The position numbers and the translations under genes were made by a program. Below are positions 5,811-58,988 of a stretch of 64,000 nt of DNA, one piece after another. Every line of letters starts with the position of its first letter. Position 1 is the stretch's first letter. The stretch is from an uncultured Acidobacteriota bacterium (GTDB taxonomy: Bacteria > Acidobacteriota > Thermoanaerobaculia > UBA5066 > Gp7-AA6): contig CAWATD010000006.1 in the NCBI GenBank assembly GCA_963784935.1, forward strand, positions 350,572 through 414,571, in the 5' to 3' direction. The notes beneath the pieces were generated by a model that saw only the letters and a program-made list of their open reading frames with translations, was not told the DNA's origin and ran no database searches.

Positions 5811-6617
5811 CTAGTCCAGGATCACTCCCGCGTATCCAACCACACTCGAGGTGTCCCCCGTTTCGTCACCGCTGTCGCAGCGCGCCACGACGCGAGCGCG
5901 GGAGATCCCTGCTGCGCGGGCCGCGAAGAGCAACGCCGTTGCGGGCAGGAATCCGCACATGGAGATGGACTCGGTCAACACGACGCGGAAGAGGCCTTCG
6001 GGATCGAGCCCAACGACTCGCGCGAGGGCCATGTCGTCCTTGCGCCGGCCCTCGTCGCGGCTTTCGTAATGGTTCATGTCGGAGGAGGCGAGGATGAGCG
6101 GCGGCTCGGTCTCCTCCGCGCAGATGGCGGCGAGCGCATCGCCCACTTCGCGGCACAGGGCGAGGCTCGGCTCGCCGAGGCACACGGGAACGAGCGTGAA
6201 ATCGGGGCGCAGGACCTGCAGGAAGGGCAGCTGCACTTCGAGCGAGTGCTCCCTCAGGTGGGCGCCCGCGTCTTGTTCGAGCGAGGGGGAGAGAGCGAGG
6301 AGCCTGTCCGCCAGGCGCCGATCCACGGGGACGTCGCCGAGCGGAGTGCGCCAGGCATCCGAGGGATCGAGGGCGGCCGGGACCCCGCGCCCGGTGTGAT
6401 TGGGACAGAGGATGATGCACGTCGAGGGAATCCGAAGTCGCGCGTAGACCGCACCGGCCACCGGGCCCGAATACACGTAGCCGGCGTGGGGGACGATGGC
6501 GCCGAACGCCCGCTCGGCTTTCGCCTCGGGCGGCAGGTGCGATCGCACAGCCTTCTCGAGGCGATCGGGCCGCGCCTCGTAGAAGGAGCCGGCGACGGCG
6601 GGGACCCGGATTGCCAT
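5811..6617 (-). CDS. AmmeMemoRadiSam system protein B (MEMO1 family)
   Basis: Start MAIRVPAVAGSFY (CAT 6615-6617) inside the 549-aa track ORF. Family blocks AGSFY, IVPHAGYVYSG and SSDMNHY. Confidence 0.85.
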   Translation of the reverse strand: MAIRVPAVAGSFYEARPDRLEKAVRSHLPPEAKAERAFGAIVPHAGYVYSGPVAGAVYARLRIPSTCIILCPNHTGRGVPAALDPSDAWRTPLGDVPVDRRLADRLLALSPSLEQDAGAHLREHSLEVQLPFLQVLRPDFTLVPVCLGEPSLALCREVGDALAAICAEETEPPLILASSDMNHYESRDEGRRKDDMALARVVGLDPEGLFRVVLTESISMCGFLPATALLFAARAAGISRARVVARCDSGDETGDTSSVVGYAGVILD

Positions 6618-6631
6618 GGCCGCTTGCCGGG

Positions 6632-7483
6632 TCAGTTCACCAGGAGCGTCGCTTCGGCAACCTGCCCCGCCAGCTCGGCGCGGATCGTCGCGGCTCCGAC
6701 CGTTCGGCCCTGGGCCACGCCCGCCGAATCCACGCTGGCGACCGCGGGGTTGGAGGACTTGAAGGTCGCGGCGGCCTCGGGAATGAGGGTACCGTCCGGG
6801 CCGTAGGCCTTCACCTCGAAGTGCTGACTCTCTCCCACGCGGGCCAGGGCGGTGGCCGGCCGGATCTCGAGCCGGGCGATCGGGCGCAGGATGGCGCTCA
6901 CGTCGCAGCCGCCCTGGATGTCGCCGATCCTTGCGATGATGGTCGTCGAGCCCGGGGCCACGGACGTGACGACTCCTCCCTCCGCGACGGTCGCGATCTT
7001 CGGGTCCGCCGAGCTCCACTCGGGCGTGAGAGCGACGGGTTTGCCCTTCGAATCCTTGACCGTGAAAGAGACCGGGATGGCGGTGCCGGCCGGGCCTGTC
7101 AGGGCCAGCGACCCCGGGGTGATTTCGATCGAGGCGACGTCCACGACCTCCACCGGGATCTGGGCCGAGACACCCTGGTACGTGGCGGTCACCATCGCCT
7201 TGCCGGCCTTCCTGGCGACGATGCGGCCGCCGGGCTCGGCGGATACGTTTGCGTTCGACGCGCTCCAGGTCGCCGTCGCTTGCTCGAAGCCCTGTCCGTT
7301 CTTGTCGAGGACCTTTGCCGAAAGCCGCTGCGAGCGGTCGAGGCCGTAAATTTTGACGTCCTTCGAATGTTTGCCCTTGCCGGCCGCGTCGACGGTGATC
7401 TGGATGGAAGCGGGTTTGCGGGAGCAGGCGCCGGCGACGAGCACGGCGCCGAGCAGGCAAATCATGGCGCGAGATGAACGCAT
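6632..7483 (-). CDS. lipoprotein with bacterial Ig-like (Big_2) repeats
   Basis: 283 aa. Lipobox LVAGAC. Repeated beta-rich modules (ATWSASN..., EWSSADPKIATV..., TFKSSNPAVASV...). Confidence 0.75.
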   Translation of the reverse strand: MRSSRAMICLLGAVLVAGACSRKPASIQITVDAAGKGKHSKDVKIYGLDRSQRLSAKVLDKNGQGFEQATATWSASNANVSAEPGGRIVARKAGKAMVTATYQGVSAQIPVEVVDVASIEITPGSLALTGPAGTAIPVSFTVKDSKGKPVALTPEWSSADPKIATVAEGGVVTSVAPGSTTIIARIGDIQGGCDVSAILRPIARLEIRPATALARVGESQHFEVKAYGPDGTLIPEAAATFKSSNPAVASVDSAGVAQGRTVGAATIRAELAGQVAEATLLVN

Positions 7484-13415: not shown

Positions 13416-14234
13416 GTGAGCTGGCTCGACGCCATCATCCTCGGAATCATCCAGGGACTGACCGAATTCATCCCCGTTTCCTCCGATGGACACCTTTCCG
13501 CGGCCGAGATGCTGATGCCGCGCTTCGGCCAGGTCGGCCTGCTCTTCGACGTCATGGTGCACATGGGCACCCTGGCGGCAATCGTCATCTACTACCGCAA
13601 GCTCCTCGCGGATGAGGTCGCCGGCCTCGTTTCGCGCGACCTCGCCGAGCGGGCCAGGGCGTGGCGCCTGGCGATGCTGCTGCTCGTCGCGACGATTCCG
13701 ACCGGGATCGTCGGCCTGTTCATGAAGCACTACGTCGAGCAGACCAAGACGAACCCGCAATTCGTCGGGGCCATGGAGATCCTGACCGGCCTCTATCTCG
13801 CGGTGTCGTACTTCCGGCGGGGCGGGACCAAGGACCTCGAGACCATGACCTACCTCGACGCCTTCATCATCGGCGCCGTACAGGGCTTCGCCGTGCTCCC
13901 CGGGCTCTCGAGATCCGCTTCCACGATCGGCTTTGGCCTGATGCTCGGGTTGGCGGCCCGCTGGGCGGCGGACTACACGTTCCTGCTCGCCATACCGGCC
14001 ATCGTCGGCGCGGCGGGTGTCGAGATCATTTCCGCGCTGCGGCACAACGGAGCAGGATTCTTCGCGACGCCCGATTTCGCCCGGTACCTTGTCGGTGCGG
14101 CCGTCGCCGGGATCGTGGGCTACATGACGATCGGGTTCCTGATCCGGATGGTCTCCACCCGGAAGGTCCACTGGTTCGCGCTCTACTGTTTCGTCTTCGG
14201 GCTCGTCCTGATCTTCTTCTTTCCGAAGCCCTAG
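13416..14234 (+). CDS. uppP: undecaprenyl-diphosphate phosphatase
   Basis: 272 aa. N-terminal QGLTEFIPVSSDGHL, polytopic membrane protein. TAG stop lies inside a CTAG at 14231-14234. Confidence 0.9.
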   Translation: MSWLDAIILGIIQGLTEFIPVSSDGHLSAAEMLMPRFGQVGLLFDVMVHMGTLAAIVIYYRKLLADEVAGLVSRDLAERARAWRLAMLLLVATIPTGIVGLFMKHYVEQTKTNPQFVGAMEILTGLYLAVSYFRRGGTKDLETMTYLDAFIIGAVQGFAVLPGLSRSASTIGFGLMLGLAARWAADYTFLLAIPAIVGAAGVEIISALRHNGAGFFATPDFARYLVGAAVAGIVGYMTIGFLIRMVSTRKVHWFALYCFVFGLVLIFFFPKP

Positions 14235-14240
14235 ACCCAA

Positions 14241-14371
14241 CTCGTGTTCCGTCACCGAGGTGTTGATAGCGCCATGCGGCTTCTTGCAACCACCGCGGCC
14301 CTCGCTCCTGGGCCTCCTTGCATCGTTCGAGCGGAGAGATTGGTATCGTGACTTCGGTTACAGGACACTAG
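14241..14371 (+). repeat. copy A of a ~123-nt intergenic element (core 14245-14367), flanked by CTCG / CTAG
   Basis: Aligns by hand over its full length with 45892-46022 and 57489-57620. The first 17 nt pair with the last 17 nt (15/17). It sits exactly between the convergent stops of uppP and the ORF at 14368-14586. Confidence 0.85.
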
Positions 14372-14586
14372 CCGCCGCCGGGGCGGGTGCGGTGAGCATG
14401 GCGCGTGCCGAGGCGGATCGCCCCGTACACGAGCACGCAGCACAGGAAGTCGATGAGCAGGCCCACGTCGAATCCGAACGCCTGGTGCTGGAGCGCCGGC
14501 GGCAGCGACGGGTGCAGGACCGCGAAGTAGATCCCGTTGCCCGCGAGGATGGCGATCAGGTATTCGACCCAGCGGCGCGGCGTCAC
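14368..14586 (-). CDS. small two-TM membrane protein (hypothetical)
   Basis: 72 codons from GTG 14586. Nearly every codon ends in G/C. Two hydrophobic segments (WVEYLIAILAGNGIYFAVL, VGLLIDFLCCVLVYGAI). 10 nt downstream of the preceding gene. Its TAG stop is the CTAG at the right edge of repeat copy A. Confidence 0.55.
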   Translation of the reverse strand: MTPRRWVEYLIAILAGNGIYFAVLHPSLPPALQHQAFGFDVGLLIDFLCCVLVYGAIRLGTRHAHRTRPGGG

Positions 14587-14596
14587 ACCCGGAAAT

Positions 14597-15280
14597 CTAT
14601 CGCTTTTCCGCCGCGCTGCGCGCGAGGGTCTCGGCCAGGTGGCGCTCGGAAAGGGCCCGGCCCTCGACAAGCCCATGCCGCTGGCGGATGGCGATCGCCT
14701 CGCGGAGGGCCTTGCCGCTTTCGCCGAGGTGCGCGACGGCGCGGGTGGGTTCGAGCTCGGCGAGGCGGCGCCAGGCGATGCCGAGGTTGTGGAGCGTGAC
14801 CCCGCGCGCGATCTCTCTCTCCGAGGTGCGCCAGCCGAGGGCCTTCTCGAACAGGGCGACCGCCTCCTCGAGCTCCGCGCTCGTTGTTCCGAGATTCGAA
14901 AGCGCCGTGCCAAAATTGTGCTGGGCTCGCGCGTGCCAGCCGCTTTCCGAATCTCCGGCGAAGTGCGCAAGGGCGACGCCGAACGCCGCGCGCGCCCGCG
15001 GCAGGTCGGCGGCTGGTCCCGGGCTTCCGTAGAAGACCGCGGCGTTGTGGAAGAAACGGGCGCGCTCCTCGGGCGCGCCGAAGAGCAGACCGGGCAGGAG
15101 ATCCCAGAGGTCGTCCGCGAGCGCCCGCGCGCCCTCCGCGTCGCCGCGCTCGCTCAACTCCTCCTGCGCCCGAAACCAGTCGCGATAGGCGCCGACCGGA
15201 TCGGCGCCGAGCGCGCCGCGGAAGTGCCGCACCAGATCGTCCATGGTCCCGTTCACCGAGCGCAACGATATGCCTCGCAT
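14597..15280 (-). CDS. hypothetical helical-repeat (TPR-like) protein
   Basis: 227 aa. Repeating helical A/L/E-rich segments; coding-like frame; no catalytic motif. Confidence 0.6.
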   Translation of the reverse strand: MRGISLRSVNGTMDDLVRHFRGALGADPVGAYRDWFRAQEELSERGDAEGARALADDLWDLLPGLLFGAPEERARFFHNAAVFYGSPGPAADLPRARAAFGVALAHFAGDSESGWHARAQHNFGTALSNLGTTSAELEEAVALFEKALGWRTSEREIARGVTLHNLGIAWRRLAELEPTRAVAHLGESGKALREAIAIRQRHGLVEGRALSERHLAETLARSAAEKR

Positions 15281-27198: not shown

Positions 27199-28331
27199 GG
27201 AGCCCTCTCGAAGAAGTCACGGACGGCCTCGATCACGGCCCCGACCTCGCGCTCGGAGAGCGACGGGTAGATCGGAAGGGAGGCGACCGTCTCGCAGGCT
27301 TCCTCCGAAACGGGGAAATCCCCCTTCCGGTATCCGAGGAAGGCGTAGGCGGGCTGCAGGTGGAGCGGTGTCGGGTAGTGGATCCCGGTCTCGATCCCGT
27401 GGGAGGCGAGGTGCTCGCGGAAAGCGTCGCGCCGCGCGATCCGGACGGGGTAGAGGTGCCTGGCGGGAACCGACTCGGGCCGACAGCCGAGCAGTCGCAG
27501 CGGAAGCTCTCGGAACGCCGCGTCGTAGCGTTCCCCGATCTCGCGCCGGCGGGCGTTCTCGCTTTCGAGGAAAGGGAGCTTGGCGCGCAGGATCGCGGCC
27601 TGGATCTCGTCCAGGCGGGAGTTCCAGCCCTCACGCTCGGCGTGGTCGCGCCGGCTCCAGCCGTACTGCCGCCGATCTCTGACCTCGTCGGCGATCCGGG
27701 CGTCGTTGGTCGCGACCGCGCCGCCATCTCCGTATGCCCCGAGGTTCTTGGAGGGATAGAAGGAAAACGCCGCCGCGTTCCCGAAGCTCCCCGACGAGCG
27801 GCCACGCCAGCTCGCCCCGTGGCTCTGGGCGCAGTCTTCGATGAGCGCGAGCCCTTCGCGTCTTGCCAGAAGCGACAGACGCTCGAGGTCGGCGAGGCCG
27901 CCATAGAGGTGGACGGGGAGCAGGCATTTGAGGGTCGACGTGACGGCGCTTTCGGCGCTGTCGGCGTCCAGCGTGAGCGTCTCCGGGTCGACATCGGCGA
28001 GCCGCGGCCATGCCCGCGCCAGGCGCACCGCGGCGATCGTGGGCACGCACGTGTTGGCGGGCAGGAGGACTTCGTCCTCGGCGTGGAGCCCGGCGGCCTG
28101 GAGGGCCAGAGCAATGGCCTCGGTACCGTTGGCGCAGGCGACGACGTGCGAGACGCCGAGCCACTGTGCGAATTCCTCCTCGAAACGGCGGACCTCCTCG
28201 CCCAGGATGAACCAACCGCGTTCGAGGACTCGCGCAATCGCGGCGTCGATCGCGGCCCGCTTGCCGCGATAGTCGTCGGCCAGGGCGCCGAACGCCACGC
28301 GGGGGGCAGCGCCGGCCGCGCCCGGGCTCAT
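27195..28331 (-). CDS. DegT/DnrJ/EryC1/StrS family sugar aminotransferase
   Basis: Start MSPGAAG (ATGA overlap with the upstream gene); 378 aa. Contains WFILGEEVRRFEEEFA, FSFYPSKNLGAYGDGG and HYPTPLHLQPAY. Confidence 0.9.
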   Translation of the reverse strand: MSPGAAGAAPRVAFGALADDYRGKRAAIDAAIARVLERGWFILGEEVRRFEEEFAQWLGVSHVVACANGTEAIALALQAAGLHAEDEVLLPANTCVPTIAAVRLARAWPRLADVDPETLTLDADSAESAVTSTLKCLLPVHLYGGLADLERLSLLARREGLALIEDCAQSHGASWRGRSSGSFGNAAAFSFYPSKNLGAYGDGGAVATNDARIADEVRDRRQYGWSRRDHAEREGWNSRLDEIQAAILRAKLPFLESENARRREIGERYDAAFRELPLRLLGCRPESVPARHLYPVRIARRDAFREHLASHGIETGIHYPTPLHLQPAYAFLGYRKGDFPVSEEACETVASLPIYPSLSEREVGAVIEAVRDFFERAP

Positions 28332-28888
28332 GCCGCCTCGACGACCTCGCCGGACGCGTGGCGCGCGTAGCGGCGGCCGCAGGAGCAGGCCGTGCTCCCG
28401 TTCTCGAAGCGGAGGGTCTTCCCGCAGCGGCAGACGTGCCCGTGGATCTGGGCGGGGCCGCCGTAGACGAGTGCGAAGTCCGGGACGTCCCTCGTGACGA
28501 GCGCGGCCGCTCCCACCATGGCGAACCGTCCGACGGCGATGCCCGGCAGGAGGATTGCCCCCGCGCCCAGGCTCGCACCCTCCCGCACCCGCGTTTGCGG
28601 AAAAGCCTCGGGGCGCCGGCGGCTGCGGGGCCGCGGATCGTTCGAGAAGATCACGCCCGGCCCGACGAAAACGCCGTCCTCGAGCACGAGGCCGTCGTAG
28701 AGCGAAACGCCGCACTTGACCGTCACGCGGTCGCCGAGGACGACGTCGTTTTCGATGAAACAGCGGTCGCAGACGTTGCAGTCCGCGCCGATCCGGGCCC
28801 CGGCGAGGATGTTGACGAACGCCCAGATCCGCGTGCCGTCGCCGATCGCCTTCGTGGCGACGAGCGCGGTGGGATGAATCGAGATCAT
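28328..28888 (-). CDS. hexapeptide-repeat (left-handed beta-helix) sugar N-acetyltransferase-like protein
   Basis: 186 aa. Imperfect hexapeptide repeats (IGDGTRIW.., IGADCNV.., LGDRVTV..). C-terminal CRCG...CSCG zinc-ribbon-like tail. Confidence 0.8.
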   Translation of the reverse strand: MISIHPTALVATKAIGDGTRIWAFVNILAGARIGADCNVCDRCFIENDVVLGDRVTVKCGVSLYDGLVLEDGVFVGPGVIFSNDPRPRSRRRPEAFPQTRVREGASLGAGAILLPGIAVGRFAMVGAAALVTRDVPDFALVYGGPAQIHGHVCRCGKTLRFENGSTACSCGRRYARHASGEVVEAA

Positions 28889-28926
28889 GGACTGCGGGTA
28901 GCTTACCGGATGGGGGCCCCCGGGCG

Positions 28927-29907
28927 TCAGAAGTAGTCGGCGCGGCGCTCGCGGTAGAACTCGACCGTCCGCACCAGACCGTCCCGGAGGCTCGTTTTCG
29001 GCTCCCAGCCGAGCAGGGTGCGGATCTTCGTGATGTCGGAGACGAAGTCGCCCGGCTCCTGGGCCTTGCGCTCGGGGGTGAAGTCGGTGAATTCCAGGCG
29101 CGCCCCCGGGACGATCTCCCGCAGGAGCTCGGCCACCTCGAGGAAGGTCGAGGGCCGGTCGTGCCCGACGTTGAGGACCTCGCCGACCGCCCGCGGCTCG
29201 GAGGCGGCGAGAAGCAGCGCCTCGACGCAGTCGTCCACGTAGAGAAAGTCGCGGAGGATCCTGCCGGAGCCGAAAATCGGAATCGGCTTTCCGTCGAGAG
29301 CCAGACGCACGAACCAGTTCACGACGCCGAACTGCGAGTGCTTCATCTGGCCCCGCGGGCCGTACACGTTGGTCAGGCGCAGGGGCACGGTGCGGATGCC
29401 ATGGATGCGCGTGTAGGTGCGGCAGATCATCTCGGCCGAGAGCTGCGAGATTTCGTAGATGCCGCGCGGGTCCGACGGTGTCTCTTCGGAGACGGGCAGC
29501 TTCACGGCGGGCCCGTACTGGCCGCGGGTGCCCGAGCGCACGACGAGCGCGTCGGGGTTCGCCTTGCGGCAGGCCTCGAGCAGGACGGCGGTGCCCTTGA
29601 TGTTGATGTCGATGTCGGGATAGGGGTTCGAGAGCGACATGACATGGGAGACCTGCGCCGCCAGGTGAAAAACGACGTCCTGGCCCGCGACGAGCCGCTC
29701 CATCGCGGCTGCGTCGCGAACGTCGGCGGTGTCGACGACCACGTCGGAGCGGATCTCGCGGATGTTCGCGGGGTTGCCGCCGTAACCCTCGATCATCGCG
29801 TCGCAGAGCGTGACGCGGGCGCCCTCCGAAACGAGGTGCCGGGCGAGGTTGGAGCCGATGAACCCGAGCCCTCCGGTGACAAGAACGCGCTTGCGGGAAA
29901 GAGTCAT
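28927..29907 (-). CDS. NAD-dependent epimerase/dehydratase (extended SDR)
   Basis: 326 aa. Rossmann motif VLVTGGLGFIGSNL and the YxxxK region YEISQLSAE. Confidence 0.9.
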   Translation of the reverse strand: MTLSRKRVLVTGGLGFIGSNLARHLVSEGARVTLCDAMIEGYGGNPANIREIRSDVVVDTADVRDAAAMERLVAGQDVVFHLAAQVSHVMSLSNPYPDIDINIKGTAVLLEACRKANPDALVVRSGTRGQYGPAVKLPVSEETPSDPRGIYEISQLSAEMICRTYTRIHGIRTVPLRLTNVYGPRGQMKHSQFGVVNWFVRLALDGKPIPIFGSGRILRDFLYVDDCVEALLLAASEPRAVGEVLNVGHDRPSTFLEVAELLREIVPGARLEFTDFTPERKAQEPGDFVSDITKIRTLLGWEPKTSLRDGLVRTVEFYRERRADYF

Positions 29908-32022: not shown

Positions 32023-32076
32023 ATAACTGATCTATAACAGTTTATTCGTAAAGCCTCGAGTCAGGCTCGGACTCTG

Positions 32077-32103
32077 CTAGCACTCGTCATCGAGGAGTGC
32101 TAG
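32077..32103. promoter_or_regulatory. CIRCE operator (HrcA binding site) upstream of groES
   Basis: CTAGCACTC-N9-GAGTGCTAG is a perfect 9-bp inverted repeat with a 9-nt spacer. It matches the consensus TTAGCACTC-N9-GAGTGCTAA and lies 60 nt upstream of the groES ATG. Confidence 0.9.
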
Positions 32104-32162
32104 TATCGCACTCCCCCGGCAACGGGGACCACGAAGGCAACACAACTTCAAGGAGGAAGTTC

Positions 32163-32456
32163 ATGAAAGTTCGGCCACTCTACGATCGAATCCTGGTCAA
32201 GCGGCTCGAGGTCGGCGAGATGAAGAAGGGCGGGATCATCATCCCGGACACCGCCAAGGAGAAGCCGATGGAGGCGGAAGTCGTCGCCGTCGGCAAGGGC
32301 AAGGTGAACGAGGACGGCAAGCAGTTTCCCCTGGACGTCAAGAAGGGCGACCGCATCCTCATCGGCAAGTACGCCGGCACCGAAATCAAGATCGACGACG
32401 AAGAGCACCTGATCCTGCGCGAGGACGAAGTGCTCGCGGTCGTCGAAGGGAAGTAA
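32163..32456 (+). CDS. groES: co-chaperonin GroES
   Basis: 97 aa, [16 protein letters not shown].... AAGGAGGA RBS lies 6 nt upstream. Confidence 0.95.
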
Positions 32457-43585: not shown

Positions 43586-45895
43586 GTGGACGAAGACGAA
43601 TCCGCGCGCGCGCGGCTGGTTTCGCTGCCGATGTGGGTGTACCGGCACCGGGTCCCGATCCTCGTCGGCTTCGGGAGCCTGTTGCTCGCCGGCGTGATCG
43701 CGCTCGGATACTTCACCACGCGCGTGGTGGCGCGCTTCGATGGCCGGCGATGGAATCTCCCGTCGCGGATCTACTCGGATCTCTACACCCTGCGCCCCGG
43801 GGACGCGGCCTCGATTCCGGTGCTCTGCGCCAAGCTCGGGCGGCTCTTCTACCAGGAGTCCGACGGGCCGCCGGAGCGGCCCGGGCACTTCCGGCGCGAG
43901 AAGGACGCCCTCGAGATCCACACCCGCGGCTTCCGGTACCCGGGGCGCACGTTCCCGGGCGCACGCGTCCGCATCGTGGTCGGGTCCGGCCGCGCGCGGG
44001 CGCTGACCGACGCGGCGGGAGACGCGGTGCCGGCGCTCAACCTGGAACCAGAACTGCTGGGGTCGGTGTTCGGAGCGGAACTCGAGGACCGGACGGTCAT
44101 CCGCCTCTCCGAGGCGCCGCAGTCGCTGGTCGACGCCATCCTCGTGACGGAGGACCGGGAGTTCTTCCGACACACCGGCGTTTCGGTGCGGCGCCTCTTC
44201 GGAGCCGTGTTCCGGACGCTGACGGGCGGCATGAAGCAGGGCGGCTCGACACTGACCCAGCAGCTCGTCAAGAACCTCTACCTCTCGCCCGAGCGCACTT
44301 TGCGCCGCAAGGCCACCGAGGCCGTGATGGCCGTGGTGCTCGACGCCCGTTACTCGAAGGACGAGATCCTCGAGGCGTACTTGAACGAGATCTACCTCGG
44401 ACGGCGGGGCGCGATCGCCGTGACGGGCGTCGGCGAGGCGGCGCGCTACTACTTCGGCGCGGAGGTCTCGGACCTCGACCTGGCCGAGTCCGCCACGCTG
44501 GCCGGAATGATCCGGGCGCCCAACGCGTATTCGCCGTTGCGCAATCCCGAGCGCGCGCGTCAGCGCCGCGACCTCGTCCTGCGCCTCATGCACGAGGAAG
44601 GGAAGGTCGACGAGGCCGCGATGCGCGCCGCGATGGCGGAGCCGATCACGCCCCGGACCCGCGTGGAGGACCGGACCCGCGCGCCGCATTTCGTCGATTT
44701 CGTCAAGGGCGAGCTCGCCGAGCGCTACGGCCAGCAGCTCCAGAGCGAAGGCCTCCAGGTCTACACGACCCTGGACGTGGATCTGCAGCAGGCCGGGCAG
44801 CGCGCCGTGACGCAGGGCCTCGAGAGTCTCGAGAAGGCGTACAGGCGCCTGACCTCGGCCTCGAGGGAGGCGCCGCTCCAGGGCGCGCTGATCGTGCTCG
44901 AGCCGCAGACCGGCGGCGTGCGCGCGCTCGTGGGAGGCCGCGACTACCGCCTCTCGCAGTTCAACCGCGTCACGCAGGCCCACCGCCAGCCGGGGAGTCT
45001 CTTCAAGCCGTTCGTCTACCTCGCGGCCTTCGCCCGCCGCGACATGGATCCTCCCGTGACGCCGGCGACGATCCTGATGGACTCGCCGATCACGGTCGAG
45101 TGGGGGCAGAAGACCGACGAGGAAACGTGGACGCCGCGCAACTATGACGGCGACTACCGAGGCCCGATGTCGGCGCGCCATGCGCTCGAGCGATCGATCA
45201 ACATCCCGACCGTGCGCGTCTCGCTGATGGCGGGCCTTCCGTTCGTGCTCGGCGCGGCCAGGGGTGCGGGCATCGGATCGCGGCTGCGCGGCTACCCCTC
45301 GGTCGCGCTCGGGGCCTTCGAGATCTCGCCGATGGAGATCGCGGGTGCCTACGCCGTCTTTGCCAACAGCGGCGTCCGCGTGGCACCGAACGCCATCGTC
45401 GGCGTCATGACCGGCGACGGGACCGTGCTCGACCGCAAGGCCGCGCCGCTTTCCCCGGCGCTCCCGGCCGACGCCGTCTTCCTCGTCAATTCCATCCTGA
45501 AGGGAGCGGTCGACCACGGCACCGCGGCCGGGGCGCGCGCGCGCGGCCTGGCCGGCGTGCTGGCAGGCAAGACCGGGACCACCAACGACGGGCGGGACGC
45601 GTGGTTCGTGGGTTTTTCACCGCGATTCCTCACGGCAGTCTGGGTCGGCTACGACGACAATCGCGGCCTGAACCTCTCCGGAACGCAGGCCGCGGTGCCC
45701 ATCTTCGCCGACTTCGCGCGTTCGGCACCGGCGCAGTTCTTCGCGGAGGACTTTCCGGTCCCCTCCGACATCGTGACGGCAACGATCGATCCGGAGACGG
45801 GATTTCTCGCCGCGCCCGGTTGCCCGCAGCCTGCGACCGAAAGCTTCATCGAGGGCACGGCGCCGACGACGGTGTGCCCGAGGCACGGTGGCTAG
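43586..45895 (+). CDS. class A penicillin-binding protein (PBP1A family: transglycosylase + transpeptidase)
   Basis: 769 aa. GT51 motifs EDREFFRHTG and GGSTLTQQLVKN; transpeptidase motifs SLFKP and KTGTTND. TAG stop lies inside a CTAG at 45892-45895. Confidence 0.92.
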   Translation: MDEDESARARLVSLPMWVYRHRVPILVGFGSLLLAGVIALGYFTTRVVARFDGRRWNLPSRIYSDLYTLRPGDAASIPVLCAKLGRLFYQESDGPPERPGHFRREKDALEIHTRGFRYPGRTFPGARVRIVVGSGRARALTDAAGDAVPALNLEPELLGSVFGAELEDRTVIRLSEAPQSLVDAILVTEDREFFRHTGVSVRRLFGAVFRTLTGGMKQGGSTLTQQLVKNLYLSPERTLRRKATEAVMAVVLDARYSKDEILEAYLNEIYLGRRGAIAVTGVGEAARYYFGAEVSDLDLAESATLAGMIRAPNAYSPLRNPERARQRRDLVLRLMHEEGKVDEAAMRAAMAEPITPRTRVEDRTRAPHFVDFVKGELAERYGQQLQSEGLQVYTTLDVDLQQAGQRAVTQGLESLEKAYRRLTSASREAPLQGALIVLEPQTGGVRALVGGRDYRLSQFNRVTQAHRQPGSLFKPFVYLAAFARRDMDPPVTPATILMDSPITVEWGQKTDEETWTPRNYDGDYRGPMSARHALERSINIPTVRVSLMAGLPFVLGAARGAGIGSRLRGYPSVALGAFEISPMEIAGAYAVFANSGVRVAPNAIVGVMTGDGTVLDRKAAPLSPALPADAVFLVNSILKGAVDHGTAAGARARGLAGVLAGKTGTTNDGRDAWFVGFSPRFLTAVWVGYDDNRGLNLSGTQAAVPIFADFARSAPAQFFAEDFPVPSDIVTATIDPETGFLAAPGCPQPATESFIEGTAPTTVCPRHGG

Positions 45896-46022
45896 CGTTC
45901 TGTCACCGAAGCGTTGATAGCGCCATGCGGCTTCTTACACCCACCGTGGCCCTCGCGCGTGGACCTTCTTGCATCTTTCGAGCGGAGAGATTGGCATCGT
46001 GACTTCGGTGACAGGACACTCG
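45892..46022 (+). repeat. copy B of the ~123-nt element (core 45896-46018), flanked by CTAG / CTCG
   Basis: Full-length hand alignment with copies A and C. Best terminal stem (16/17 pairs). The left CTAG contains the PBP stop codon. Confidence 0.85.
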
Positions 46023-46078
46023 ACGAGGCGGCCCGTCGACGGCCTGCGGTCTGATAAATTCACCGATTCGGTCATCTC

Positions 46079-49003
46079 GTGAAAAGACGCAATCCACTCC
46101 GCCCCACGCCGATCCGCATCCGCGGCGCCCGGACGCACAACCTCAAGAACATTTCGGCCGACATTCCGCTCGGCCGCCTGACGGTCATCACCGGCGTGTC
46201 GGGCTCGGGCAAGTCGTCGCTGGCCTTCGACACCCTCTACGCCGAGGGGCAGCGGCGCTATGCCGAGTCGCTCTCGACCTACGCGCGCCAGTTTCTCGAG
46301 CGCCTCGACCGGCCGGACGTGGATTCGATCGAGCCGGTGCCGCCGGCGATCGCGCTCGAGCAGAAGAACGGCGTGCGCAACGCGCGCTCGACGGTCGGAA
46401 CGCAGACCGAGATCCACGACAGTCTGCGGCTGCTGTATGCGCACGGCGGCACGACCGTGTGTCCCGACTGCGGCGCCGATGCCGTGGGGGGAGGCGTGGA
46501 CCGGGCTCTCGAAGAGCTGTGCGCGACCGAGGATGGCGCCCGGGCGGTCCTCGTCGCGCCCCTGCGGTGGAAAGACACGGCGACGCCGGTCTCCGGGCGT
46601 CGCAGGCGGGCGGTCGGCGACGGGACGCGGCTGGCCGAGTACAAGCGTGCCGGCTTCTTCCGGGCGCTGGCGCCTTCGGGCGAGATCGTCGAGCTGGGCG
46701 ACGAGGCGTCGGCCCTTCTCGACGCGGAGGGCCGCCTGCGGCTCGTCGTGGGCCGCTTCGTCATCGGCGCCGCGTCGCGCCCGGAGATCGCAGCCGCGGC
46801 CGAAACGGCATTTTCGCTCGCGGGGTCGCTCGAGGCGCGCATGGGCGAGCGCGTGCGGACCTTCCGGCGCGGCCTCCACTGTCCGCGCTGCGGGCGCGAG
46901 TTCCGCGATCCGACGCCACCGCTGTTCGCCTTCAATTCCCCGCTCGGCGCCTGCGCCGTCTGTCAGGGTTTCGGACGCGTGATTGGCGTGGACCTCGAGA
47001 AGGCAATCCCCGATCGCAGCCTGGCGCTCTCGGATCGCCCGATTGCACCCTGGAACACGCCGGCATACGAGTCTGCCTACGACGACCTGTTCCGCGCCTG
47101 CCGCCGCTACTCGGTGCGCACCGACGTGCCGGTGTCGCGCCTGTCCGCGCACGAACGGGAGGTGCTGATCAAGGGGCGCGGGGACTTCTACGGCGTCCAG
47201 GGCTTCTTCGACTGGCTGGAGACCAAGCGGTACAAGATTCACGTCCGAGTCCTGCTGGCGCGCTACCGCGCGTACTCGCTCTGCGGTTCCTGCCGCGGAG
47301 CCCGCCTCGCCGCGCCGGCGCTGTGGGTCCGATTCCGCGGCAGGACGATCGCCGAGCTCGTGGACATGTCGCTCAGGGATCTGAGGGTGTTTCTCGACGG
47401 GCTCTCGCTTTCGGCGGCGGAACAGGCGCGCCTCGGGTCGGTCGTTGCCGAGCTCAGGGCGCGGGTGCGTTACATGAACGACGTGGGGCTCGACTACCTG
47501 ACGCTCGCGCGCCCGGCCCGGACCCTGTCGGGCGGCGAGTCGCAGCGCATCGGCCTGGCCTCCGCGCTGGGGGGGGCCCTGACCGGAACCCTGTACGTGC
47601 TCGACGAGCCGACGATCGGCCTGCACGCGGCCGACACGAAGCGGCTGCTCGCGATCCTCCGGCGTCTGGCCGACCGCGGCAACACCGTGGTCGTCGTGGA
47701 GCACGATCCCGAAGCCATCGAGTCGGCGGACCACGTGATCGACCTCGGCCCCGATGCGGGCAGCCGGGGAGGGCAGGTGCTGTTCGCGGGGACCCCCCGC
47801 GCCCTCGCGCGCGTGAAGGACTCGGCGACCGGGGAGCTCCTGCGCCGCCGCGGGAATCCGGCGCGCGACTCGCGCCCCGCGACGCACGACCCGATCCCGG
47901 GCCGCGGCGCGCGCTCAAGCCCCTCCCGCATCGTTCCCTTCCGCCGCGCGGAGGGCGCCATCACGGTCGTGGGCGCGCGGCAGCACAACCTGCAGAACAT
48001 CACGGTCCGAATCCCGCTCGGACGGCTCGTGGCGCTGGCCGGAGTCTCGGGCTCCGGAAAGTCCACGCTCGTGCGCGACATCCTGCACAACGCGTACGCG
48101 CGCCGGGTCCGCGGCGCGGCGCAATTCGAGGTCGGGGAGCACGATCGCATCGACGGGCTCGAGGGCATCTCCGAGCTGCTGCTGGTCGACCAGAGCCCCC
48201 TCGGCCGCTCGGCGCGCTCGAACCCCGTCACCTACACCAAGGCCTGGGACGAGATCCGCCAGCTCTTCGCCCGCTCCGGACGCGCCCTTTCGCGCGGCAT
48301 CACCCCGCGGGACTTTTCCTTCAATTCGGCCGGCGGCCGCTGCGAGGTCTGCCGCGGCACGGGCTGGCAGACGATCGACATGCAGTTCCTCGCCGACGTC
48401 ACGGTCCGCTGCGAGGCCTGCGACGGGAGACGGTTCCAGCCCCGGGTGCTCGCCGTGCGCCTGCGCGGCAGGAACATCGACGAGGTGCTGGACATGACCG
48501 TCGAGGACGCCGCCGTGTTCTTCGGCGGGGAGGAGAAGATCGTGCGCCGCCTCGAGCCGCTCCTGGAGGCGGGGCTCGGGTATGTCCGGCTCGGGCAACC
48601 CACCGCGACGCTCTCGGGCGGCGAGGCCCAGAGACTCAGGCTGGCGGCCTTTCTGGGGATCCGTCCGGCTTCCACGAACGGGGCTCTGTTTCTGTTCGAC
48701 GAGCCGACGACGGGCCTCCACGCGCGCGACGTGGACCGTCTGCTGGCGACGCTCCGGCGCCTGATCGCGCGCGGCCACTCCGTGCTCGCCGTCGAGCACC
48801 ACCTCGGGTTTCTCGAGGCGAGCGACTGGATCATCGAGCTCGGTCCTGGCGGCGGCGAGGACGGAGGTCGGCTCCTGGGCGAGGGCGCGCCCCGAGACAT
48901 CCGCAGCAACCCGAAGAGTGTGACGGGGCCTTTCCTCGCAGACCCGCGAGCCGCGTTCGGCACCGGTCCAGCCTCTATAATGGGAAAGAAGTCCCTTCGC
49001 TGA
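46079..49003 (+). CDS. uvrA: excinuclease ABC subunit A
   Basis: 974 aa, GTG start. Contains [10 protein letters not shown], two Walker A sites ([18 protein letters not shown]) and zinc-finger Cys pairs. Confidence 0.97.
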
Positions 49004-55301: not shown

Positions 55302-56035
55302 AGAAGCTCTTCGCGATCGTCGGCCGGGAGTGGCGTGCCTATTTCCTCTCGCCGCTCGCCTACGTGATCCTCACGGCCTACATGTTCCTGAACGGCATCA
55401 TCTTTTCGCGCATCGTGGCCTTCCTTTCGGCGCCGGGAGCGCCACGCGAGCGGTTCCTCTCGCTGATGTTCACGAACACGTACTTCTGGATTTTCACGCT
55501 CTTCATCATCCCGATCCTGACGATGCGCCTGCTCGCCGAGGAGCGGCGCTCGGGAACGCTCGAGGTCCTGCTCACGTCCCCGGTTTCCGAGGCGACCGTG
55601 GTCGTCGGAAAATTCCTCGGGGCCTGCGGCTTCTTCCTGGTGCTCTGGGTTCCGAGCGTCCTGTTCATCCTCTTCCTGCGCGCGAAGACCTCGGTCGACC
55701 TCGGCGCGGTGGCCTCGGGGTATGCGGGGATCGCGCTGCTCGGCGCGTACTTCCTGGCGATCGGCACGTTTGCTTCGGCGCTGACGAAGAACCAGATCCT
55801 CGCGGCCATCCTGACCTTCGCGATCCTGATCCCCGTCTTTTCCGTGGGGCTGTTCGAGTCGGGCGCCGACCCGGCGCGGCAGAGCCTGATCGGGTACCTC
55901 AACATCTGGGAGCACATGGACGAGTTCGCGCGGGGCGTGGTCGACACGCGCCGGATCCTGTATTACCTGTCGGGGACGGCCTTCTTCCTGTTCCTCGCGG
56001 CGACGATCCTTTCCTCGAAGAAGGAGACGCCGTGA
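55298..56035 (+). CDS. ABC-2 permease (GldF-like)
   Basis: GTGA overlap. 245 aa with 6 TM helices. Contains EERRSGTLEVLLTSPVS. Confidence 0.8.
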
Positions 56036-57492
56036 GCGCCCGCTCCACGCGAGTGGGCACGTCGGCGGCCGGCATCCTGCTCGCGGCGGCGCTCTGGCTG
56101 GGCGTGAACTACCTCTCGACGCGCCACTGGAAGCGCTTCGACTGGACGCGGGCGCAGGTGTACTCGCTCTCGGAAACCACGAAGAAGACCCTCGAGGGCC
56201 TCAAGAAGCCCGTGCAGGTGACCGTGTTCATGGTCTCGGGGCGGTCGCGGGTGCTGCCCGAGGTCAAGGAGCTGCTGGCCCGTTACCAGCAGCTCAGCCC
56301 GAAGATCGAGGTCGAGTACCTCGATCCCCAGCGCAACATGGCCCGGGCCGAGGCGCTCGTCAAGGATGCCGGCGTGCGGGAAAACACGGTCGTGTTCCGC
56401 TCCGGCGATCGCCGGAAGTACGTCGACGAGGACAAGCTCGCCGACTTCGACTTTTCGGGCGCCGGCATGGGCGGTGCGGCGACCGTCAAGAGTTTCAAGG
56501 CGGAGGAGGCCTTCACGTCCGCCATCCTCTCGGTCACCGAGGACCGGCAGTCCCGCGTGTACTTCACGAAGGGGCACGGCGAGGCGGCGATCGATTCGAC
56601 GGAGCGCGGGCGCGGCTATGCCGACGCCCGGCAAGAGCTCGAGCGCGGCAACCTGGTCGTCTCGACGTGGGAGGCGCTCGGAAAGGACGACCTTCCGAAG
56701 GACGCGGACCTCATCGTCGTGGCCGGGCCCCGCACGGCGTTTCTCGAGCCGGAAGCCGCGGCGCTCGCGAAGTATCTCGGGGCGGGCGGGCGCGCACTGC
56801 TGCTCCTCGATCCGATCCTGCCGGGCCCGGGCGCGCCGCCCGCGGACCTCGGCCTCGGTGCCCTGCTCGGAAAGTACGGCATCCGGCTGGGCGACGACCT
56901 CGTCGTGGATCCCGCCAACGCCCTTCCGAATGTGGGGGCCGAAACCCTGGTTGCCAGCAAGTACGGCAATCATCCGATCGTACGATCGCTGGCCGCCGAA
57001 GGCCTCCCGGCCGTGTTCCAGCTCGCGCGTTCGGTGACGAAGGCCGAAAAGGATCCACAGGGCCTTTCGGAGGCCATGCTCATCGAGACGTCCGCGGAGG
57101 GCTGGGGCGAGACCAACCTCAAGCAGCTCGATTCCGGGCTCAAGAAGGAGCCCGGGGACACGCCGGGGCCGGTTTCGCTGGCCGTTGCCGTGGGCCCCGC
57201 CGACGAGAGGAAGAAGGGTGATCCGTCGCCGCGGCTCGTCGTGTTCGGCAACTCCCGGTTCGCAGCCAGCGGGTCCATTCAGAACGGTGCCAACGGCACG
57301 CTGTTCGCGAACGCAGCGCAGTGGCTGGCCGGCCGGGACCGCCAGGTCGGCATCGCGCCGAAGACGCCGGAGCAGGCATCGCTGACGCTCACCGAAAACC
57401 AGGTCATCCGGATCGGCTGGACGGTCATCGTCGGGCTGCCGGCCCTGGCCATCCTGCTCGGCGTCTGGGTCTGGTACCGGCGGCGGGACTAG
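56032..57492 (+). CDS. GldG-like ABC transporter auxiliary protein
   Basis: GTGA overlap. 486 aa with N- and C-terminal TM helices flanking a large soluble domain. TAG stop lies inside a CTAG at 57489-57492. Confidence 0.8.
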   Translation: MSARSTRVGTSAAGILLAAALWLGVNYLSTRHWKRFDWTRAQVYSLSETTKKTLEGLKKPVQVTVFMVSGRSRVLPEVKELLARYQQLSPKIEVEYLDPQRNMARAEALVKDAGVRENTVVFRSGDRRKYVDEDKLADFDFSGAGMGGAATVKSFKAEEAFTSAILSVTEDRQSRVYFTKGHGEAAIDSTERGRGYADARQELERGNLVVSTWEALGKDDLPKDADLIVVAGPRTAFLEPEAAALAKYLGAGGRALLLLDPILPGPGAPPADLGLGALLGKYGIRLGDDLVVDPANALPNVGAETLVASKYGNHPIVRSLAAEGLPAVFQLARSVTKAEKDPQGLSEAMLIETSAEGWGETNLKQLDSGLKKEPGDTPGPVSLAVAVGPADERKKGDPSPRLVVFGNSRFAASGSIQNGANGTLFANAAQWLAGRDRQVGIAPKTPEQASLTLTENQVIRIGWTVIVGLPALAILLGVWVWYRRRD

Positions 57493-57620
57493 TGTTCTGG
57501 CACCGAAGTTTCGATAGCGCCGTGCGGCTTCTCACAACCACCGTGGCCCTCGCTCTTGGGCCTTACTCGCATCTTTCAAGCGAAGAGATTGGCATCGTGA
57601 CTTCGGTTACAGGACACTAG
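57489..57620 (+). repeat. copy C of the ~123-nt element (core 57493-57616), flanked by CTAG / CTAG
   Basis: Full-length hand alignment with A and B (one extra nt). Perfect 4-bp direct repeats at both ends. Lies between the gldG-like stop and the next same-strand start at 57630. Confidence 0.85.
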
Positions 57621-57629
57621 GGTCCGGCC

Positions 57630-58988
57630 GTGTCCGCCAGGAAGCTGCTCGCACTGACCGCGGTGGTCGCCGTCCTTTTCGGGTTCATCTTTCTCTTCGA
57701 GCGTCGTTTGCCGACGACCGAAGAGCGGTCGCGCAAAGGCGACCTCTACTGGGACATTCCACAGGACCAGGTCGAGCGGATCGAGCTCGCCCGTTCGGGC
57801 GAGACCCTGGAGTTCCAGCGGGCCGGCGAGGCCGGTTGGAAGATGATCAAGCCCGAAAAATACCCGGCCGACCCGTTTGCCGTCGGGAGCGTGTTGTCCG
57901 GGCTTGCCGAGTTCAAGCGCGCGGGCGGCGAGGACGCGGGCGATGCGCGGCCGGCTGACTACGGGCTCGACAAACCCGCGGCGAAGGCCACGATCGTCTG
58001 GAGCGACCCGGCGGACCCGAAGTCGCGCAAGACGCGGACGATCGAGTTCGGCGCCCCGGTTCCCGGCACCGATGTCGTCGCCGCGCGTGTGGAAGGGACG
58101 CAAAAGGTCCTTTTCGTGCCGGCGGCCGTGCTCGCGTCCCTGAGGAAGAGCGCGGACGACTTCGAGAGCCGGGAGCTCTTCGGCGGGGCCCCGGCGGACA
58201 TGACGCGGCTGGAGATCCTGCGGGGGCGGGGCCGGCTCGTCTTCGCACGCAAGCAGGGAGTCTGGTGGCTGGTCGAGCCGATGTCGGACCTCGCCGATGC
58301 GGCGGAGGTCGACCGGCTGGAGGCGTCCCTGCTGGGGCTCCGGGCCAGGGATTTCATCCACGGTGGCCAGGATCTGGCGGCGTTCGGCTTGAGCCCGGCG
58401 CTCTTCCGCGTCTCGATCACGGGCGCAAAGGGCTTAGTCAGCGCGGTCGACTTCGGCGCGACGCGTTCGGACGGCAACACGATTTACGCGCGGCGCGATG
58501 GGCAGGTCCTCACCGTCGAACGCGACATCTCGGAAGAGCTGTCGAAGGAAGCCGAGGCGTTCCGGGGCCGCGCGCTGCTCGGCTTCCACAGGGGAGAAGC
58601 CGCGGGGATCGATGCGGCGTTCGGGAAAACGCGCATCCTCCTCGACTTCAACGGCGGCGGATGGAACTCCGGGGGCCGTCCTGTGCTGGCGGCGGCGGCC
58701 GACGATGCGCTCGGGGCTCTGCTCGACCTGAAGTGCAGGGAGTTTGTCGACGAGTCCGCGATGAAAGCGCTCGATCCGGCGGCCGCGACCGTGACGGTCC
58801 GGATGAAGACCGGGGACCCGTGGACCCTGAACCTGCACCCCGGAGCGAACGGGATGATCGCGCGGGTTTCGGCGCGGCCCGGAGGATTCCTCCTGGATCG
58901 GGACGCCGCGGAGAAGCTCGAGGCGGCGCTCCGGAAAGCCGTCGCGGAGGCGACGCCCGCGAAGAAATCGGAAGACGGTAGACGGTAG
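57630..58988 (+). CDS. DUF4340-like protein (usual partner of GldG-type ABC modules)
   Basis: 452 aa, GTG start. N-terminal TM helix. Repeated beta-rich modules (...IELARSGETLEFQRAGEAGWKMIKP...). Confidence 0.7.
   Translation: MSARKLLALTAVVAVLFGFIFLFERRLPTTEERSRKGDLYWDIPQDQVERIELARSGETLEFQRAGEAGWKMIKPEKYPADPFAVGSVLSGLAEFKRAGGEDAGDARPADYGLDKPAAKATIVWSDPADPKSRKTRTIEFGAPVPGTDVVAARVEGTQKVLFVPAAVLASLRKSADDFESRELFGGAPADMTRLEILRGRGRLVFARKQGVWWLVEPMSDLADAAEVDRLEASLLGLRARDFIHGGQDLAAFGLSPALFRVSITGAKGLVSAVDFGATRSDGNTIYARRDGQVLTVERDISEELSKEAEAFRGRALLGFHRGEAAGIDAAFGKTRILLDFNGGGWNSGGRPVLAAAADDALGALLDLKCREFVDESAMKALDPAAATVTVRMKTGDPWTLNLHPGANGMIARVSARPGGFLLDRDAAEKLEAALRKAVAEATPAKKSEDGRR

Follow-up and report, generated by a model that had tools for sequence, protein, structure and literature searches.

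A short repeat at gene ends in an uncultured Thermoanaerobaculia genome is very probably a non-autonomous IS630-type transposon

A repeat with inverted ends beside three stop codons

The window, i.e., the whole 64-kb stretch of DNA that was analysed, contains three copies of a repeat of about 131 nt, all on the + strand, at 14241-14371 (copy A), 45892-46022 (copy B), and 57489-57620 (copy C). Copy A lies between two convergent genes, one encoding BacA/UppP (13416-14234, +), which ends 7 nt upstream of the copy, and the other a 200-aa ORF (14368-14970, -) whose TAG stop codon is formed by the CTAG at the right border of the copy. Copy B follows a class A PBP gene (43586-45895), the TAG stop of which lies inside the CTAG at the left border of the copy, and uvrA starts at 46079. 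Copy C has the TAG stop of an ABC_transp_aux gene (55330-57492) inside its left CTAG, and a DUF4340 gene starts at 57630. Every window copy is thus adjoined by a stop codon, on the left side in two cases and on the right side in one. Copies B and C lie between co-directional genes and are probably co-transcribed with them. In the spacer that holds copy B, a CTGATA(G/A/C)ATTC motif followed by TTCGGT stands roughly 30 nt before uvrA (window 46040-46075) and is found in nearly all close relatives (L071-L097). This motif is a possible promoter or operator, and copy B sits just upstream of it and leaves it undisturbed.

A first-pass annotation of this DNA had reported three same-strand copies of the repeat, and reading, alignment, and a repeat finder all return the same three. 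It had located the repeat correctly but drawn its bounds too tightly, as the unit reaches 4 nt further on each side and carries a CTAG at both borders, a frame that had been missed. The identity of the copies, first put at roughly 85-90%, measures 84-90% (ungapped, against copy A), and their internal sequences differ by substitutions and by one indel, the single extra base of copy C relative to copies A and B that had also been seen at first pass. No further copy was found in the window, either by nhmmer with an HMM built from the three copies or by approximate scans of both strands for the terminal inverted repeats (TIRs). For the 14-mer ATCGTGACTTCGGT, 0.35 matches would be expected in the window at up to two mismatches, and there are exactly three.

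The TIRs are 17 bp long and have the sequence GTGTYCTGTMACCGAAG (~17 bp) at both ends. In copy A, which measures 131 bp including its flanks, a left flank of CTCG (14241-14244) is followed by the left TIR (14244-14260), the right TIR (14352-14368), and the right CTAG (14368-14371). Copy B, also of 131 bp, consists in the same order of a left CTAG (45892-45895), the two TIRs (45895-45911 and 46003-46019), and a right flank of CTCG (46019-46022). In copy C (132 bp), both flanks are intact (CTAG at 57489-57492 and at 57617-57620) around TIRs at 57492-57508 and 57601-57617. The left border of copy A and the right border of copy B, both now CTCG, are thus decayed forms of CTAG. The ends are complementary at 15, 16, and 15 of 17 positions in copies A, B, and C, respectively, and these counts, together with a T:G position shared by all copies, are those given by the first-pass annotation. 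The central GGCCC-N8-GGRCC hairpin that it described is present in the window copies but is broken in diverged members of the family. It was also right that the copies share no ORF and contain no T-tract. We took as the criteria for a MITE a length of about 50-800 bp, no coding capacity, and TIRs of at least 10-15 bp; at 131-132 bp including flanks and with no ORF common to the copies, the repeat is small and non-coding. A local segmental duplication was considered as the origin of the three copies and rejected, since their flanks are unrelated and they are 91-93% identical to copies from other metagenomes, as close as they are to each other. With 10-16% divergence and a decayed CTCG flank in two of the three, the window copies may now be immobile fossils.

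The position of the copies at stop codons can be traced to the scarcity of their borders. In the window, which has a GC content of 69.5%, CTAG would be expected 180 times on base composition and 44.5 times under a Markov model; it occurs only 14 times, a depletion of about 13-fold relative to the first figure. Of these sites, four border copies of the repeat, eight end open frames of at least 172 codons, and two lie in a CIRCE-type operator, CTAGCACTC-N9-GAGTGCTAG (window 32074-32104), upstream of an AAGGAGG RBS and the groES start at 32163. Three other tetranucleotides, TTAA (3), TATA (6), and ATAT (8), are rarer still in the window. What is left of the depleted CTAG is mostly found where a C precedes a TAG stop, on either strand, and for this reason the copies adjoin stop codons. 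Furthermore, since the first base of the element is G and its last base is C, the arrangement C-TA-[G...C]-TA-G restores a TAG for the gene on either side. Copy B provides a direct case of such a restored stop, with the C-terminus of PBP1 (…HGG*) being the same as in the closest relatives.

Dispersed copies, IS630-type ends, and empty sites

The first-pass annotation had proposed a search of other genomes for copy number and context, and this search found dispersed copies in Acidobacteriota MAGs and in metagenomes. Among species-representative genomes, exact matches to a 23-nt block from the interior of the element were found at 8 loci in three Acidobacteriota MAGs, and a metagenome scan with an internal block returned four further copies on four contigs. 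Altogether, the element is present in at least 7 Acidobacteriota MAGs and 4 metagenome contigs, and its copies there occur in both orientations relative to genes. Nearly every copy has the borders CTAG|TGTTCTGTCACCGAAG...CTTCGGTTACAGGACA|CTAG, including the window copies, L001-L009, L231-L234, and other loci. L001 and L008, both from one MAG, share 100% identity, and near-identical copies in the OTE_51 MAG indicate recent activity outside the window. The TIR scan gave 0 matches in viral contigs and with it no evidence for a phage vector, and a distant-mode blastn search of a plasmid collection returned no match to the element.

Several of these loci are of interest in their own right. Two shortened variants, an internal-deletion variant of 89 bp (L003:5698-5786) and one of 75 bp (L036:3820-3894), keep both TIRs and the CTAG flanks, so persistence of the element seems to need very little internal sequence; L005 is a right-half fragment. 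Two diverged copies of the window type lie 1 kb apart in the Acidobacteriota MAG MFD09730.bin.2.99 (L062:5398-5530 and 6534-6665) and could be either a composite arrangement or simply two independent insertions. A second CTAG-flanked repeat, with the ends GAGACTGCTGAAAAACGG...CCTTTTTCAGCAAC, occurs at L036:3894-4080, where it directly adjoins the 75-bp variant, and at L005:1013-1040, where it replaces the left half of a copy of the window type. This second repeat probably represents a different MITE family with the same CTAG targets, in a nested insertion. Finally, copies often lie within 60-200 nt of the end of a short-read contig (L001, L002, L006, L008, and L039), as expected of a multi-copy repeat, and the element is probably a frequent assembly breakpoint in short-read MAGs of these genomes.

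An alignment of all short elements separates them into at least four subfamilies with unrelated interiors between the same ends. Subfamily 1 is the window type (131-132 bp), and its copies from different MAGs and metagenomes are 84-93% identical internally. The others are a GC-rich subfamily of 132-134 bp in MFD05442.bin.1.363, a third of 171-173 bp in Verrucomicrobiota, and a fourth of 174-175 bp in other Acidobacteria, and further types, seen as one-offs, measure 157 and ~186 bp. The subfamilies have nothing but the terminal ~21 nt in common: across 61 unique ends, information content is high at positions 1-21 and then collapses. Judged from these alignments, conservation that is limited to the ends is characteristic of a transposase-binding end rather than of an RNA helix built around a conserved core.

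These ends are shared with complete insertion sequences. A TIR scan of genomes with the 20-nt end CTAGTGTYCTGTMACCGAAG returned 67 loci in Acidobacteriota, Chloroflexota (mostly Dehalococcoidia), Dormiibacterota, Verrucomicrobiota, Planctomycetota, and other phyla. Paired inverted matches delimit short elements of 75, 89, 131-134, and 171-175 bp as well as long elements of 1164 and 1172 bp. The 1172-bp elements are present in at least 14 complete copies in the Dehalococcoidia chromosome OY762251.1, and the 1164-bp element, with the same 20-mer ends, was found in a Dormiibacterota MAG. The 20-nt MITE end CTAGTGTCCTGTAACCGAAG matches the left end of the 1164-1172-bp elements (L012 and L017) at 20 of 20 positions, and the left end of the IS, CTAGTGTCCTGTAACCGAAGT, is the reverse complement of the right end of the MITE. 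The long elements each contain a single ORF of 364-376 aa, which matches the NF033545 IS630 family transposase model with 285 and 277 bits (cutoff 100), contains the Pfam domains DDE_3, HTH_32, HTH_23, and HTH_29, and is 65-68% identical to annotated IS630 transposases on proteobacterial plasmids. By our own count on the sequence, the catalytic triad of the L012 protein is DD35E.

A protein-based scan also recovered full-length relatives from many Acidobacteriota MAGs; they measure 1159-1161 bp and are often multi-copy. The ends of these relatives, CTAGTGTCCTGTAACTGAAG, are one mismatch away from the MITE end, and their flanks are almost always C-TA...TA-G. Full-length elements with the exact MITE TIR are thus found in other phyla, and those of Acidobacteriota are one base off in the TIR. 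In the 64-kb window itself, tblastn with an IS630 transposase detected no IS630-family transposase gene. We rejected the idea that the MITE is a simple internal-deletion derivative of the recovered ISs, as similarity between them ends at ~21 nt.

Comparison of orthologous sites provides filled and empty alleles, with the caveat that the taxa compared are relatives (84% identical in DNA; 78-94% identical in protein) and not strains of one species. The PBP1 protein places the window in Thermoanaerobaculia, with the closest species representatives 94% and 91% identical. At least 12 related Thermoanaerobaculia genomes (78-94% amino-acid identity) keep the PBP1-uvrA gene order and the conserved CTGATAGATTC motif before uvrA and lack copy B, and there are no copies in 80 related PBP1 loci (about 560 kb). 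On the strength of these orthologous PBP1-uvrA spacers without the element, we regard copy B as an insertion. The reverse situation is found on the metagenome contig L234, which is orthologous to window 28047-28901 at 84% identity. There, L234 reads GGTAAG-CTCG-[element]-CTAG-CCGCAGTCCATG and the minus strand of the window reads GGTAAG-CTAC-CCGCAGTCCATG; the gap between the two is 127 nt, with borders that coincide exactly with the ends of the element together with a single copy of the target. The unoccupied target site defined by this alignment is at 28898-28901 (CTAC on the - strand, GTAG on the +), between an epimerase gene (28927-29907, -) and a hexapeptide-transferase gene (28328-28888, -). 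For copy C, a metagenome scan with GCGGCGGGACTAGGGTCCGGCC for a conspecific empty allele gave 0 matches. Exact-protein look-ups with the neighbouring BacA and DUF4340 proteins, which could have led to strain variants, had no match either, possibly owing to differently called start codons.

Taken together, the element is very probably a non-autonomous DNA transposon (MITE) of the IS630/Tc1/mariner superfamily that codes for nothing. This assignment is strongly supported by the IS630-identical ends, the CTAG/TA flanks, the dispersed copies in both orientations, the filled and empty sites, the deletion variants, and the subfamilies that share only their ends. Of the two origins that the first-pass annotation had left side by side, a miniature mobile element and a structured RNA module, it is the former that the TIRs, the flanks, and the orthologous sites bear out. 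The TIRs GTGTYCTGTMACCGAAG would be the binding and cleavage sites of an IS630-family DDE transposase, presumably provided in trans, either by a full-length IS at another place in the genome or by one in an earlier host. IS630 is reported to prefer the TA of CTAG as its target (Tenzen & Ohtsubo 1991, as cited in PMC2170065), and ISY100 of Synechocystis transposes by cut-and-paste with duplication of TA (PMC2170065). By family precedent and the biochemistry of ISY100 (PMC2170065), the transposase would excise the element and paste it into the TA of a CTAG, duplicating the TA, and tolerated insertions would accumulate at the 3' ends of genes, where CTAG survives. The long terminal stem would then be the two transposase-binding ends read as RNA.

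RNA-level structure and alternative explanations

The alternative that fares best is compatible with the element being a MITE and adds that it has become secondarily useful: in a 3' UTR or intercistronic RNA, its ~17-bp hairpin could stabilise the mRNA, be a site for RNase III, or attenuate transcription. Precedent exists in proposals made for Correia/NEMIS, ERIC, and REP elements, and the Delihas review describes long stem-loop transcripts of bacterial MITEs and RNase III processing of NEMIS RNAs (PMC2229807). The location of copies B and C between co-directional genes and the 84-93% identity of subfamily-1 interiors across MAGs and metagenomes are consistent with such a use. Folding points partly in the same direction. 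Single-sequence folds are dominated by the terminal stem, with -42 to -52 kcal/mol for the whole element, and on the + strand copies B and C fold better than shuffled sequences (z = -4.0 for both). However, copy A folds no better than its shuffles (z = -0.4), and on the - strand the z-scores of copies A, B, and C are 0.05, -2.9, and -3.3. The - strand thus folds almost as well, as expected of an inverted repeat at the DNA level. The lack of a T-tract, the loss of the central hairpin in diverged members, and the absence of covariation also speak against a selected RNA function, as do the random orientation of the element with respect to the abutting gene and the orthologous sites in relatives that do without it. 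We therefore consider a secondary use unlikely. The more specific proposal that subfamily 1 has been co-opted, i.e., kept because a hairpin at the stop codon sets mRNA 3'-end stability or operon polarity, we consider less likely again.

A structured non-coding RNA or cis-regulatory module would make the copies paralogous RNA genes or UTR modules in which the stem was kept for its function in RNA. The observations that first suggested this were the three window copies on one strand, the long stem, and the shared U-G position, which would be C-A on the other strand. That three same-strand copies carry no statistical meaning had been conceded from the start, and we agree; among subfamily-1 copies, the gene whose stop lies in the flanking CTAG is on the left of the element in 7 and on the right in 6, which shows no strand preference relative to the abutting gene. 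The U-G position is an inherited difference between IRL and IRR within subfamily 1 (GTGTTCTGTC... vs GTGTCCTGTA...). In agreement with the first-pass statement that the repeat is not a described RNA family, a scan of the whole window against Rfam gave 0 matches at the gathering thresholds, and at E<=10 copy A returned a single, irrelevant match of 13 bits outside the element.

The covariation test called for at first pass, performed with RNAalifold and shuffled alignments of 15 subfamily-1 copies, went against the RNA module, with stem positions varying without compensation. RNAalifold predicted the terminal stem and three short internal helices of 2-4 pairs and did not retain the central hairpin; its covariation term of +1.06 for the 15 copies gives no support, and there is no compensatory pair in the predicted terminal stem. 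One predicted pair, in an internal helix, is changed on both sides in a single sequence. For the structure drawn in the first-pass annotation, 84.7% of cells are paired against 84.8% after shuffling, and the covariation score is 0.054 against 0.056. In its terminal helix, one pair is changed on both sides, and the changes at 7 other pairs only break pairing. Across these 15 sequences, which are a small sample, each of the five measures comes out the same before and after shuffling. Since, in addition, copies elsewhere lie in both orientations relative to genes, the stem sequence is that of the termini of IS630-clade ISs, and unrelated interiors are found between the same ends, the RNA module is largely refuted and, in our estimate, very improbable.

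We find it just as improbable that the repeat is a MITE of another IS family with a 4-bp CTAG duplication (IS5-type, which targets YTAR) or that a RAYT (Y1) transposase mobilises it as a REP/BIME-like palindrome. The C-TA-[G...C]-TA-G flanks fit a TA duplication, and the palindromic CTAG, intact on both sides, fits a 4-bp duplication equally well on sequence alone. The few exceptional flanks point in opposite directions: the CTAG...CTAC of L017 and the C...A of L172 fit duplication of TA in an NTAN target, whereas the full-length element L025:3923-5094 has TTAG on both sides. What tells against another family is that the elements with identical ends encode only IS630-family transposases, not those of IS5 or Y1 type, and, in the case of REP/BIME, that a repeat of 131 bp with 17-bp TIRs differs from the 20-40-bp palindromes headed by GTAG or CGTC outlined in PMC3733652.

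Known systems and meaning of the repeat

Read as an IS630-type MITE, the window element has its closest analogue in RUP of Streptococcus pneumoniae, which is described as a MITE derived from IS630-Spn1 (Oggioni & Claverys 1999, as cited in PMC2229807). According to the account of RUP in PMC2229807, the two have in common that they are non-coding (~107 bp for RUP), have IS630-like TIRs, insert at TA, are present in many intergenic copies, and are proposed to be mobilised in trans. In that same account, RUP differs in belonging to a host of another phylum, in having contiguous TIRs of 9 bp, and in being reported to target IS elements. The window element, for its part, has 17-bp TIRs, a CTAG context, and a position at stop codons; the distinction from RUP is drawn from published descriptions. 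IS630 of Shigella sonnei and ISY100 resemble the full-length elements that share the ends, with a length of ~1.16-1.17 kb, one transposase with HTH and DDE_3 domains, and a TA target within CTAG. In contrast, the window element lacks a transposase gene and has ~21 nt per end in common with the autonomous elements.

The Correia/NEMIS elements of Neisseria are a further parallel, being TIR-bounded units of 107-155 bp with TA termini that are mostly intergenic and were defined by alignments of filled and empty sites (PMC2229807). Their transcripts form long stem-loops (PMC2229807). Correia elements differ in their 24-bp TIRs, which have no identified parent IS, and they carry IHF sites and RNase III targets. 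In the literature searched, to which ISfinder did not belong, we found no description of this particular family.

The repeat is thus an ordinary kind of bacterial repeat and not a new structured RNA; a false lead for such an RNA is removed, and no new biological question is opened. The value of the result lies mainly in annotation, as it gives a name to a repeat family, so far unannotated, that occurs in uncultured Thermoanaerobaculia and in other Acidobacteriota, and explains why the contigs of short-read MAGs break at these sites. It also links the family with an IS630 clade that is widespread and has kept its 20-nt ends in at least six phyla, and it offers a clean example of a scarce target funnelling a transposon to stop codons.
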